32,000 bases of DNA, taken from assembly GCA_048938295.1 (NCBI GenBank), contig JBHLMI010000010.1, positions 45,904 to 77,903 on the forward strand, written 5' to 3'. Every line of letters begins with the position of its first letter. Positions within the stretch are counted from its first letter, which is position 1. This document shows, in pieces, positions 2,118 to 6,029 of the stretch. Position numbers and translations under genes: made by a program. Below the pieces are notes generated by a model that had not been told where the DNA came from, did not search any database, and saw nothing but the letters and a program-made list of their open reading frames with translations. The stretch comes from Promethearchaeota archaeon. GTDB taxonomy: Archaea > Asgardarchaeota > Hermodarchaeia > Hermodarchaeales > Hermodarchaeaceae.

Positions 2118-3029
2118 ATGTCAAACCAACAATGCCCTGAATGTGGCCGACAACTAAAACCTAATGCCAAGTTCTGCTCCTACTGCGGGGTTTCCCTCGC
2201 TACACGAAAAAAAGCCGTTGAAAATATTCAGGCTCAACCCGCAAGTGCAGCCCCGGTTTCAGGCAACCAAATTCCACACGAATTAACAGAAATACCTCCT
2301 ACAGTTGAATCTGCGTTAATTATGCGAGGAAAACTGGAAAGACTACGGTCCCAAAAAGCAGCCCTTGATGAAGAGCAAGAAACAGTGAATGTCAAGCAAC
2401 TTGTCGGTGAACTTTCCGAAAAAGAAGCAAAAACTCAATCTGACAAATTTCAACAGCGCTTAGATCCAATAACAAAAGAAATTGAAGAACTAGAAAGCAA
2501 AGCTATCACTCCCTTAGAACAGCTTAAACAGGACAAGGAGGTCCAAGAAGGACGCCTTCAACGACTAGAAGAACTTCAGAAATCAGGAGAAGTTGACACC
2601 GCAATTTACCAACGGCTCTCCAGCGAGTACCGAGGGAAGCTCTCCGAAATCAATCAACAACTTGATAATGAAGTATCCCAAGCAAACCGTTGGCTAGCTC
2701 AACTAGAAGATCGCAAACAGCAATTAGAGTTTGATAAAGAGACCCTCCAAATTCGTGCACGTATTGATGAGGTTTCTAAACGCGATGTAAATAAACAGCT
2801 TAAAGGCATCGATGATGAAGTGAACAAACTTACCAGCATCATCGGGGGCCTCCGATCAATATTGGGCAGTGCTGTAGCTCCACCTAAAGCCTTTATACCC
2901 AAACCTGCTGCCACTCCTAGTCAGAAACCATCTGGCAAAGCAGTTACTGAAACGTGTCCATACTGTCAAGCGAAAATTACGCCCGGTTCAAAGTGGTGCT
3001 ATTCCTGTGGACGTTTACTTCAGGGTTAA
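2118..3029 (+). CDS. Double zinc-ribbon / coiled-coil / double zinc-ribbon protein with a CdvA-like central coiled coil
   Basis: CPECG..FCSYCG at the N-terminus and CPYCQ..WCYSCG at the C-terminus. The central heptad region RLQRLEELQKSGEVDTAIYQRLSSEY resembles the CdvA L...GE....Y..L..EY pattern. Confidence 0.65.
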   Translation: MSNQQCPECGRQLKPNAKFCSYCGVSLATRKKAVENIQAQPASAAPVSGNQIPHELTEIPPTVESALIMRGKLERLRSQKAALDEEQETVNVKQLVGELSEKEAKTQSDKFQQRLDPITKEIEELESKAITPLEQLKQDKEVQEGRLQRLEELQKSGEVDTAIYQRLSSEYRGKLSEINQQLDNEVSQANRWLAQLEDRKQQLEFDKETLQIRARIDEVSKRDVNKQLKGIDDEVNKLTSIIGGLRSILGSAVAPPKAFIPKPAATPSQKPSGKAVTETCPYCQAKITPGSKWCYSCGRLLQG

Positions 3030-3541
3030 GGAAGCATAAACCGAACGGCTTCATATCCACCAACGCTGTCGCCTTTTCGCCCCCAAACAAAAAGAAAGGG
3101 ATTACGGATCACATACTCCATGGGGGTTTCGACTTCAATAATTCGCGTGCCCACTGGGAACAGATACAGGACATCAATATCATATTCGGCCAGTTCTTCC
3201 TCAACGTCGCTGCTTAGTTCGTTTTTCCCATCCCGAGGGGTGCCTTGGAAATGAACAATCCACTGGAAATAAGCAATTTGAGGGCTTCCTCGCAACCCGA
3301 TATCGACATGCAGGAGTTTTTGGTTAACACGTTTATCATTGATAAAGACTTTTTCCGCCGCAAGAAATTCTGTCATATTCGCTTGAATCATATTAACCTC
3401 TTGTTGCAGAGCCTCTTGGTCTTTCAGAATCCTCTCGTACACCCCTTCAGGGTCATGATAATCATAAATAATAACCTGATATACTTCCAAAGCAGGAGAA
3501 ATCGAGAAAACTGAGGAGGCGAATAAGGGCTGCACATTCAT
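3026..3541 (-). CDS. Hypothetical protein
   Basis: 171-aa ORF with globular composition, convergent 4-nt overlap with the previous gene and divergent from tmk. No motif recognised. Confidence 0.65.
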   Translation of the reverse strand: MNVQPLFASSVFSISPALEVYQVIIYDYHDPEGVYERILKDQEALQQEVNMIQANMTEFLAAEKVFINDKRVNQKLLHVDIGLRGSPQIAYFQWIVHFQGTPRDGKNELSSDVEEELAEYDIDVLYLFPVGTRIIEVETPMEYVIRNPFLFVWGRKGDSVGGYEAVRFMLP

Positions 3542-3608
3542 ATGTAGGACTCTCCATCACTCCCTTTTTATTTAGTAACCTCAATTAAGACAATAAACGC
3601 CTCAAGAG

Positions 3609-4223
3609 TTGGATGTGTACTGGATGCTTCAAGGGATATTCATCGCAATTGAAGGTATCGATGGAAGTGGGACGACCACACATGCAAAACTACTATGTAA
3701 CTGGCTTAGGAAACAAGCGCTAGAGGTGGTCCAAACCCATGAACCCACTGATGAAAGAATTGGTCGCCTTATTCGAGTAATATTACAGGACACCACGGTA
3801 TCTCCTGCCATTGATGCACTGCTTTTTGCCGCAGATCGTATCGATAACACAATCAATAAAATCCAACCCGCCCTCGACCAAGGGAAAGTCGTAGTTACAG
3901 ACCGCTATGTTGAATCCTCTTATGCCTACCAGTGCTCCTCGGGACTTGACCGCGAATGGGTTCAGAATCTGAACCGATATGCTCTCACACCCACGCTTAC
4001 TTTTCTACTCGACATTGCTCCTAAAATCGCTCTAGCTCGAAAGAGAAGACCAAAGCCAAAAGAAAAATTCGAACATGAAGCATTTCTAACAAAGGTGCGA
4101 CAAATATTTCTTGAAAGGGCTCAAGAACAGGGATTCATCGTAATTAACGCAGAACGATCAATCAAAGAAGTTCAAGACCAACTCCAAAAACATGTCGAAC
4201 CATTACTCACAAGCCTTAAGTAA
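3609..4223 (+). CDS. tmk: Thymidylate kinase (true start may be ATG 3624)
   Basis: P-loop FIAIEGIDGSGTTT, EPT, LLFAADR, DRYVESSYAYQ. Confidence 0.95.
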   Translation: MDVYWMLQGIFIAIEGIDGSGTTTHAKLLCNWLRKQALEVVQTHEPTDERIGRLIRVILQDTTVSPAIDALLFAADRIDNTINKIQPALDQGKVVVTDRYVESSYAYQCSSGLDREWVQNLNRYALTPTLTFLLDIAPKIALARKRRPKPKEKFEHEAFLTKVRQIFLERAQEQGFIVINAERSIKEVQDQLQKHVEPLLTSLK

Positions 4224-4244
4224 CGCCATCCTACTTTTTACATC

Positions 4245-4316
4245 GGCGGCAATGAAGAGGAAACCTATAGTCACTGATTACAAGATGAAGTGAACGACGG
4301 GCGGACTAGAGCCGCC
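4245..4316 (+). ncRNA. Candidate box C/D guide sRNA, predicted target SSU rRNA C1402-equivalent
   Basis: Perfect terminal stem GGCGGC(4245-50)/GCCGCC(4311-16). C-like ATGAAGA 4252-58, D' CTGA 4274-77, C'-like GATGAAG 4284-90, degenerate D CTAGA 4306-10. Guide GACGGGCGG (4296-4304) is the reverse complement of the universal SSU CCGCCCGUC. Confidence 0.75.
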
Positions 4317-4371
4317 ACCTTTCTTCAGCACATATTAGAAACCAATTTGATGGTCAATAAAAATGGCTAAT

Positions 4372-4746
4372 CTATGATTGTAAAATGGATTCGATTTGGC
4401 TACTGTACCGTTTCATAACAAGGAAAATCATTCCTAAGTTTGCGCTTTTCTTTACCAAGGATGTGAGAATAGCATTTTCACCAGCGCCTTTCAAAATAAT
4501 ATAGCCGTTTTCCGCTTCAACTGTTATCTGCATAAGCTTGCCACGGGGAATCTCTGTCAAAGCGCGTTCTGCAACGCCAAGAAGCGCGGCCGTCATAGCT
4601 GCCACTATAGCCTCATTAACGGTCTGTGGCATTGCCGCTACTATGGGCAAACCCTGTGCGGTAACAATTGCACTGGCTTCAATACCCGGTGTCGTACTCT
4701 CCATTTGACGAAGGAGATCTTGAAGATTCTTCGCAGTAGCCGACAT
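4372..4746 (-). CDS. Roadblock/LC7 (MglB-like) domain protein
   Basis: 124 aa with the roadblock pattern GIEASAIVTAQGLPI...VAAMTAALLGVAERA...QITVEAENGYIIL...AILT..NLGMI. Confidence 0.92.
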   Translation of the reverse strand: MSATAKNLQDLLRQMESTTPGIEASAIVTAQGLPIVAAMPQTVNEAIVAAMTAALLGVAERALTEIPRGKLMQITVEAENGYIILKGAGENAILTSLVKKSANLGMIFLVMKRYSSQIESILQS

Positions 4747-4892
4747 AGTTTGGACCCCAACTCGCTATTTGTCTTAAAATAGCTAAAATTGTTCTGGTCA
4801 ATGCGAACTTCGTGAAAAAGGCTTCAAAATCCGCCTCTTCGAGACCATAAACCTTAAAGAAACTCCCCTTTACTGACAAGCACCATTCTAAG

Positions 4893-5897
4893 GTGGCGAA
4901 TATCATGGTCAAAAAGAATGTTCCCGAAAAAGAACCGGAACCGGTTGAGGAACCAGAAAAAAAACCCCAGACTGTCAAAGAAGCTACTGAAGCCACGGAA
5001 GAAGAGGAAACACCAGAAGAGAAGTATCGTCGTGCCGGAAAGATAGCAAGTCAAGTCAGAGAAGAAATCCGCCCACAGGTTAAAGTCGGAGCCCTCGCAC
5101 TTGATATCTGCGAAGCAGCAGAAGCACGCATAATTGAATTAGGGGGTGGCATCGGGTTCCCAACAAATTGTTCGATTAATGAAGTTGCCGCTCACTATTC
5201 TAGCCCTGAAGAAGATAAGACCATGATTCAGGAAGGTGACGTGGTCAAAGTCGACATTGGCGTTCATATCGATGGCTACATCGCAGACACAGCTTTTACT
5301 GTCAGTTTTGATCCCGAACTCAAAACCCTTGTCGAAGCCAGTCAAGAGTCCCTCAAAAAAGCTCTCCTCCTCATCCGACCGAAAACCAACAGTAAAGACC
5401 TTGGTAAAATCATTGAAGATACTATTCGGGGTTACGGCTATCGACCGATTCGGGATCTGAGTGGTCATCAACTTGACGAATACGTCCTTCATGGGTCCAA
5501 AAGCTTGCCTAACATCGCTGTTCCCTATGGCTCTGTCCTCGAAGAAGGGGAAGCATACGCCCTAGAAACCTTTGCCACCACAGGAACCGGGAGTGTCCAC
5601 GAAACTGGACAACATTATATCTACAGTCTAAACCCTGCCCGCATAGCAGTTCGGTCACAAGGAGCTAGAGATATCATCCGCCTTGTTGCTCGGGAATTTA
5701 AAAGCCTGCCATTCAGTCGTCGCTATCTAACCAAACATGTCCCTAAACTCAGCCTAGCTCTAGGGCTCCGTGAACTCACAACCAAAAAGGTGCTTCGCCA
5801 ATATAGCGTTCTCGCCGACTCGAAAGGCAGTCGAGTTGCCCAAACAGAGCACACCTTCCTCGTAAACAAAGATGGCATTGAAATCACTACCGAATAA
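4893..5897 (+). CDS. map: Type II methionine aminopeptidase with acidic N-terminal extension (start may be ATG 4905)
   Basis: Metal ligands in VKVDIGVHIDGYIADTA, GHQL, ALETF and QTEHT. Type-II helical insert LPFSRRYL present. Confidence 0.95.
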   Translation: MANIMVKKNVPEKEPEPVEEPEKKPQTVKEATEATEEEETPEEKYRRAGKIASQVREEIRPQVKVGALALDICEAAEARIIELGGGIGFPTNCSINEVAAHYSSPEEDKTMIQEGDVVKVDIGVHIDGYIADTAFTVSFDPELKTLVEASQESLKKALLLIRPKTNSKDLGKIIEDTIRGYGYRPIRDLSGHQLDEYVLHGSKSLPNIAVPYGSVLEEGEAYALETFATTGTGSVHETGQHYIYSLNPARIAVRSQGARDIIRLVAREFKSLPFSRRYLTKHVPKLSLALGLRELTTKKVLRQYSVLADSKGSRVAQTEHTFLVNKDGIEITTE

Positions 5898-6029
5898 TTT
5901 CACGAAATGAGATTTTCTAAGCTAAATTATCCAAATCGTGAAAACTTGTGAAAAAAACGGGTTTTAGTCGGGTACTACGAAGATATGTGCAAAGCTATCA
6001 TTAACATTATTATGTTTACACGTATGCTT

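Follow-up and report, generated by a model that had tools for sequence, protein, structure and literature searches.

Cm1402 of E. coli 16S rRNA corresponds to Cm1639 of yeast, for which snR70 is the guide, and to Cm1703 of human (PMC2794176). Among archaea, sR12 of Pyrococcus and Sulfolobus is predicted to act at the site equivalent to that of snR70, a prediction that a passage of Hoeppner & Poole (2012, PMC3511168) attributes to Gaspin and co-workers, and the choice between homology and convergence for sR12 and snR70 was left undecided by these authors (PMC3511168). A second archaeal RNA, Sac-sR122 of Sulfolobus acidocaldarius, is entered in the target listing of Dennis et al. (2015, PMC4644070) as having no prediction (NP). 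The supplement to that study also holds two '16S C1389*' entries, one 'sR25 16S C1389*' (PMC4644070), and since A/G1395 is equated there with E. coli A1408, C1389 is equivalent to C1402. We infer that this sR25 entry corresponds to the Pyrobaculum sR25 family, which is aimed at 16S C1368 (Pyrobaculum numbering) and in which a mismatch at N+5 is conserved (Lui et al. 2018, PMC6009581).

Within the window (the whole 32,000-nucleotide stretch of DNA that was analysed), which belongs to an Asgard archaeon of Hermodarchaeota type, we describe a 72-nt element at positions 4245–4316 of the plus strand, currently without annotation, that reads as a box C/D sRNA. To our knowledge, the C/D sRNAs of Asgard genomes have barely been catalogued. 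The element is almost certainly a real box C/D sRNA gene, and we consider it probable that it specifies an independently transcribed RNA of approximately 72 nt that guides 2'-O-methylation of C1402 in 16S rRNA.

Anatomy of the element and its surroundings

The archaeal C/D canon comprises a C box RUGAUGA, a D box CUGA and a k-turn with tandem G.A/A.G pairs, and the spacers of characterised archaeal C/D sRNAs are about 12 nt long (10–13 nt). The features of the locus are as follows, in window coordinates.

3609–4223, plus strand: tmk (thymidylate kinase; Pfam PF02223)
4215–4222, plus strand: TATA-like box CTTAAGTA, at −30 to −23 from G4245, overlapping the final codons of tmk, stop included
4245–4250, plus strand: 5' strand of the terminal stem, GGCGGC, pairing with 4311–4316 and covarying with it
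4251–4253, plus strand: three-nucleotide k-turn bulge A-A-U (A4251, A4252, U4253), directly inside the stem
4252–4258, plus strand: C box AUGAAGA, with A at position 5 where the consensus RUGAUGA has U
4254–4255 with 4309–4310, plus strand: possible sheared pairs of G4254 and A4255 with A4310 and G4309, from k-turn geometry
4259–4273, plus strand: D' spacer (guide) GGAAACCUAUAGUCA, 15 nt
4274–4277, plus strand: D' box CUGA, kept in every same-genus ortholog
between 4277 and 4285, plus strand: D'–C' linker UUACAAG, 7 nt
4285–4291, plus strand: C' box AUGAAGU, set by the alignment of orthologs
4292–4305, plus strand: D spacer GAACGACGGGCGGA, 14 nt, containing the D guide
4295–4304, plus strand: D guide CGACGGGCGG, pairing with 16S 1408–1399, with G4301 opposite C1402 and C4302 opposite G1401
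4306–4310, plus strand: D box CUAGA, that is CUGA plus one A (4308)
4311–4316, plus strand: 3' strand of the terminal stem, GCCGCC, pairing with 4245–4250
4320–4325, plus strand: T-rich tract TTTCTT, a putative transcription stop
4372–4746, minus strand: Roadblock/LC7 gene (PF03259)

The element thus occupies a convergent gap, with tmk on one side and the Roadblock/LC7 gene on the other. Upstream of tmk there is a 171-aa ORF (3026–3541, minus strand) with no Pfam family. The original prediction had described a 72-nt element with a 6-bp terminal stem, C, D', C' and D-like boxes, a TATA-like box upstream and a T-rich tract downstream, and the sequence reads so, with boxes that are conserved. Only its C' box, made to end at GUGA, has to be moved: alignment with relatives gives AUGAAGU, from which the D spacer is 14 nt long.

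The core of the k-turn consists of the stem GGCGGC/GCCGCC, the bulge A-A-U, and G4254-A4255 facing G4309-A4310, with a D box that is one base too long. At the internal motif, D' CUGA and C' AUGAAGU are both kept in orthologs, and position 5 of C' can pair with position 2 of D'. The forms of C' in the alignment of orthologs are AUGAAGU, AUGAGGU, AUGAUGG, AUGACGC and AUGAAGA; in the sister genus D' is CGGA and position 5 of C' is C or U, so that the two can still pair. The D spacer of orthologs in other genera is 12–13 nt, as compared to 14 nt here.

The TATA-like box CTTAAGTA is invariant across all same-genus and sister-genus loci, and it keeps the same spacing to the stem, give or take one base, across 21–22 nt of intervening sequence that diverges. 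Orthologs outside these genera have other A/T-rich boxes (TTAAATAT, TTTAATAT or TTTATTT) at a similar distance, about 22–30 nt upstream. The presence of an A/T-rich box upstream of every ortholog argues for an independent archaeal promoter, and the box at 4215–4222 would be the promoter of this RNA. Downstream, TTTCTT is probably where transcription stops; most orthologs have runs of three to five T, situated 3–10 nt past the stem within surroundings that are otherwise unconserved. The matches listed for window positions 3400–5900 are DNA metagenome contigs only.

Across the 2.52-Mb genome a strict pattern of four boxes plus stem occurs at three sites, as against zero when the genome is reversed; among the three, only 4245–4316 has four boxes and a 6-bp stem beside a guide complementary to rRNA. 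These counts, together with the conservation of the element amid diverged flanks (see below), indicate that it is more than a chance occurrence. When the pattern was relaxed to C and D boxes with a stem of at least 5 bp, the genome gave nine sites and the reversed genome seven, so a large family of C/D sRNAs is not evident in this genome. A second, weak covariance-model match in the same genome (contig C17:9450–9512) is without a D box. At gathering thresholds no Rfam family matched anywhere in the window, including SNORD43/snR70 and the sR families with which the original prediction had suggested a comparison. The E-value mode returned only sub-threshold C/D matches, the best being sR43 (14.2 bits) and SNORD43 (13.8 bits), against gathering scores of 45; in the SNORD43 match (E = 5.1) the guide alone aligns, by way of the shared letters GACGGGCGGAC.

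Conservation among Asgard archaea

Conservation of the boxes and the guide in relatives, on which the original prediction had staked itself, is found both within the genus and in further Asgard families. The element is present in 13 of 15 same-genus genomes, always directly 3' of tmk (11 of the 14 other genomes by BLAST and 12 of the 14 with a covariance model), and at every same-genus and sister-genus locus it starts approximately 21–22 nt past the tmk stop codon. Within the genus little or no change is seen in the stem, boxes and D guide, in contrast to the linker on the upstream side, the sequence past the element, the D' spacer and the D'–C' linker, each of which diverges. Of the 13 orthologs recovered in the genus, 12 have CGACGGGCGGA unchanged, and it is near-invariant across families.

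A first covariance model, made from 11 copies, led to orthologs in a sister genus and in four other families, and a second, made from 23 copies and run on 151 sampled Asgard genomes, has matches in 48 of them. The best 30 of these matches come from eight families, and 29 of the 30 were read and carry the same D guide. The terminal stem covaries. Across 19 distinct orthologs, 94.7% of its cells are paired and five of the six pairs change on both sides, and its covariation score was reached by none of 500 shuffles. As a control, slides of −3 to +2 columns pair 32–44% of cells, and a slide of +3, with only three pairs, 84%.

Orthologs of families f7 and f8 (L064, L088, L090 and L091) have GACAGGCGG in the guide, which places an A opposite C1404 (N+7). 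As C1404 is retained in the 16S of G024, this internal mismatch of the f7 and f8 guides is a conserved one.

The sequence of the D' guide here, GGAAACCUAUAGUCA, is unlike that of other species of the genus (GGAAACCUGAUCUCA and similar, or AAAGCAAUAGGGA). This guide has no complement of at least 10 bp in the partial 16S (L001) or the partial 23S (end of contig C20) of its own assembly, or in the 15 tRNAs given by aragorn; as these rRNAs are incomplete, the search covers only part of 16S and 23S. The 16S of two relatives (G006 and G016) likewise contains no complement of at least 10 bp to the D' guides of the same genomes. One perfect 12-mer complement lies at C53:28146–28157, which is about the level of chance for a 15-nt guide in 5 Mb. 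A partial pairing seen by eye, between CAAGUUU of helix 44 and AAACCUG in the conserved 5' portion of the D' spacer, is interrupted by a mismatch and is absent from the copy in the window, and we have discarded it. The original prediction could not place a D' target and we arrive at the same result, with none in the rRNA pieces and tRNAs searched and a guide that is unconserved even within the genus. Such variability suggests that the D' guide is free-running or idle, as is common in archaeal sRNAs, and it probably serves no conserved function.

The 16S target and the methylated nucleotide

The assembly contains the 3' half of the 16S gene on contig C48 (L001), and CCGCCCGUCG is found there at L001 1203–1212. 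The D guide (4295–4304) forms ten out of ten contiguous Watson-Crick pairs with 16S 1399–1408, including C4295–G1408, so the proposed pairing with the decoding-site tract is borne out in the organism's own 16S. A G at position 1408 had been anticipated from the C in the guide; it is present in this 16S, which reads CCGCCCGUCGCUCC, and in those of five relatives from four genera. Because of G1408, the duplex spans all ten pairs from 1399 to 1408. The six Asgard 16S with CCGCCCGUCGCUCC are those of G000 (L001), G006 (L069), G016 (L068), G019 (L084), G030 (L083) and G024 (L082); in all of these G1408 is followed by CU as in eukaryotic 18S, and the archaeal Rfam consensus has A1408. The genome also encodes fibrillarin (299 bits), which adjoins Nop5 (227 bits) on contig C39, and L7Ae (94 bits) on contig C9.

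A plausible mechanism is that the terminal stem with the C and D boxes would form a k-turn and C'/D' an internal k-loop, both of which would be bound by L7Ae, with assembly of Nop5 and fibrillarin on the sRNA. The guide CGACGGGCGG upstream of box D would then pair with 16S 1399–1408 at the top of helix 44, and fibrillarin would 2'-O-methylate the nucleotide opposite the fifth guide base upstream of D. This would be C1402, the P-site decoding nucleotide, provided that counting starts at the first C of the box, as it does for relatives whose box is a plain CUGA.

The extra base in the D box, flagged in the original prediction, is real, and a reading of the box as YAGA would put D+5 at G1401. In the sister genus an identical CGACGGGCGGA is followed by CUGA, which indicates that CUAGA is a CUGA whose U and G are separated by an inserted A. 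Two forms occur in the genus, one with C box AUGAAGA and D box CUAGA and the other with C box AUGAGGA and D box CCAGA; outside the genus, in the sister genus as well as other families, the D box of orthologs is CUGA or CCGA. Position 5 of the C box is A, G or U among orthologs, in step with position 2 of the D box, and the two make A:U, G:C, G:U or U:U in 23 of 23 orthologs, with G:C also seen in a family that has a plain CCGA box. That these positions can always pair supports a box read as C-Y-(A)-G-A and starting at C4306, with the additional A taken up within the k-turn. Counted from there, D+5 is G4301, which forms a Watson-Crick G:C pair with C1402. C1402 is also at D+5 in 15 of the 16 orthologs with a four-letter D box. 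Two orthologs, in G067 (with CUGA) and in the same-genus G011, have one more spacer base, so that C1402 is at D+6 and G1401 at D+5.

The same sRNA and the same duplex could instead be accommodated by an unbulged k-turn in which the D box is YAGA (4307–4310), A4308 faces the A or G of the C box and the U or C at 4307 pairs with G4257, so that D+5 is C4302 and the target G1401. We regard this as unlikely, notwithstanding that a k-turn without a bulge is the simpler structure and that CAGA is a plausible D-box variant, given the CCAGA that follows a C box AUGAUGA in a different sRNA of another Asgard family (G091) and the CAGA that is the D' box of SNORD43 in the Rfam consensus. The canonical CUGA of G067 likewise has G1401 at D+5, and such a register therefore does occur in this sRNA family. 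However, the CUGA that follows an identical CGACGGGCGGA in the sister genus places the inserted A inside the box and leaves the guide unmoved, and the coupled switch within the genus (A to G at position 5 of the C box with U to C at Y of the D box) fits the pairing that holds in uninserted relatives. The register of the four-letter-box orthologs also indicates C1402, and it is this ribose that is methylated in bacteria and eukaryotes (PMC2794176). As judged from the sequences we clearly favour C1402 over G1401 as the target. The target given in the original prediction is thus backed by the register of the family, with G1401 staying as the alternative in this genus.

The RNA of G091 (L058:1501–1566) is C/D-like, with C AUGAUGA, D' CGGA, C' AUGAAGU and CCAGA before the closing stem, and it shows that the phylum has other cases of a D-box variant with A as the second base. 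A further proposal, which we put forward as rather doubtful, is that the genus-wide A insertion (CUAGA/CCAGA, covarying with the C box) creates a non-standard L7Ae-binding k-turn, which either keeps the D+5 ruler in spite of a bulged base or shifts the methylation from C1402 to G1401. If true, the genus would offer a natural experiment on the setting of the C/D ruler, and this in a lineage where a 16S mini-insertion abuts the target.

This mini-insertion, of 31–33 nt, lies in the 16S gene exactly between A1398 and C1399, within the universal ACACACCGCCCGUC tract at the decoding centre, and a larger insertion is found further upstream.

L001:123–739 (G000, contig C48): 617-nt 16S insertion after GAUUCAAC
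L001:1170–1202 (G000, contig C48; also in L069 and L068): 16S mini-insertion

Three genomes of the window's own family (G000, G006 and G016) have the mini-insertion. Three Asgard genomes from other families do not; there the 16S has an uninterrupted GCACACACCGCCCGUC and the sRNA is still present, and the sRNA is thus independent of the insertion. The sequence of the insertion varies between genera with apparent compensating changes (UCCAA/UUGGA, UCCAG/CUGGA and CGUG/CACG), and it is presumably a mini-intron that abuts the target of the sRNA. We considered a bulge-helix-bulge fold and make no claim of a splicing structure, as the MFE folds differ by species and the shuffle z is weak (−1.3 to −2.2). 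The 617-nt insertion, probably an rRNA intron, holds a 182-aa ORF (L001 181–729) that is unrecognised, with no Pfam match. The helix-45 region has approximately 95 nt extra (L001:1330–1430) between GGUAGCCGUA and CCUGCGGCUGGAUCACCUCCU, the usual site of the dimethyl-adenosine loop GGGGAA; as GGGGAA lies inside the extra sequence, the region may hold two small insertions. On contig C20, the fragment of 23S is about twice as long as the model region that it matched.

The proximity of the mini-insertion to the guide duplex raises a different role, in which the sRNA would be mainly an RNA chaperone on pre-16S, holding 1399–1408 for the folding of the decoding centre, with methylation secondary or absent, and in family f1 it may in addition aid removal of the 31–33-nt insertion abutting C1399. 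The f1 insertion does sit precisely at the 5' edge of the duplex, and a precedent may exist in Pyrobaculum sR25, where guides with the conserved N+5 mismatch at 16S C1368 are treated as non-methylating (PMC6009581), assuming that C1368 is equivalent to C1402. We nevertheless think such a role very improbable, because the D+5 pair here is a perfect G-C (C-G in the other register) with nothing to block methylation, Asgard families whose 16S is free of the insertion (G019, G030 and G024) have the sRNA too, and the guide stops short of the insertion, A4305 being opposite an A with or without it. There is next to no likelihood that 4245–4316 is not an RNA gene at all, but rather part of the tmk mRNA (a conserved element at its 3' side) or a motif arisen by chance: it does lie 22 nt past the tmk stop in every same-genus and sister-genus locus, and the MFE fold of the 72-mer (−17.4 kcal/mol) is mildly better than shuffles (z = −2.19, a measure that is uninformative for C/D RNAs), but orthologs of other families keep boxes, stem and guide without being preceded by CTTAAGTAA, the conserved tmk-end motif characteristic of the locus in the window's own family, there is covariation in the terminal stem, and conservation falls precisely on the letters of the C/D boxes and the rRNA-complementary guide. 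Our preferred reading remains a box C/D sRNA that would direct methylation of C1402.

Relation to known guides for C1402

In described function a close counterpart is archaeal sR12, likewise a box C/D sRNA predicted for the C1402-equivalent (PMC3511168). Its guide is dictated by the same universal CCGCCCGUC target. The likeness is one of function and not a claim of homology, the Rfam sR families scoring at most 14.2 bits, and the present RNA differs in its five-letter D box, its spacers of 14–15 nt and the C that it places opposite G1408. Sac-sR122 (Dennis et al. 2015, PMC4644070, supplementary file 1) is a C/D sRNA that is expressed, and its guide GCGAUGGGCGGC can pair with CCGCCCGUCG such that the base opposite C1402 is five positions before the box. 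However, it uses a D' guide (box UUGA) with one G-U pair (PMC4644070), whereas the present RNA uses its D guide. In Pyrobaculum sR25 the conserved mismatch at N+5 is treated as non-methylating (PMC6009581), unlike the Watson-Crick pair at N+5 here.

The eukaryotic guides snR70 and SNORD43 (U43; Rfam clan CL00059) also guide the C1402-equivalent, the SNORD43 consensus shares GACGGGCGGAC with the present RNA, and the rRNAs targeted by both have G1408. SNORD43 differs in that its guide is upstream of D' and that it is intron-encoded, and the present RNA scores 13.8 bits against its threshold of 45. Since the letters shared with SNORD43 are forced by the target, common descent is not to be inferred from them, and Hoeppner & Poole concluded alike for sR12. 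Bacterial RsmI carries out the same ribose methylation of C1402 as a stand-alone protein enzyme without a guide RNA.

The element adds an unannotated RNA gene to Asgard genomes and would make RNA-guided methylation of the P-site nucleotide C1402, as predicted here, widespread in the archaeal relatives of eukaryotes. As sR12 has long been equated with snR70, this is expected rather than surprising, and the novelty implied in the original prediction was overstated, archaeal sR12 having already been equated with snR70/SNORD43 (PMC3511168). What is of real, if small, interest is that the D box has a conserved insertion of one base and that the target borders a 16S insertion. The present RNA is an unannotated addition to a known functional group, within which its lineage, a five-letter D box and longer spacers set it apart.
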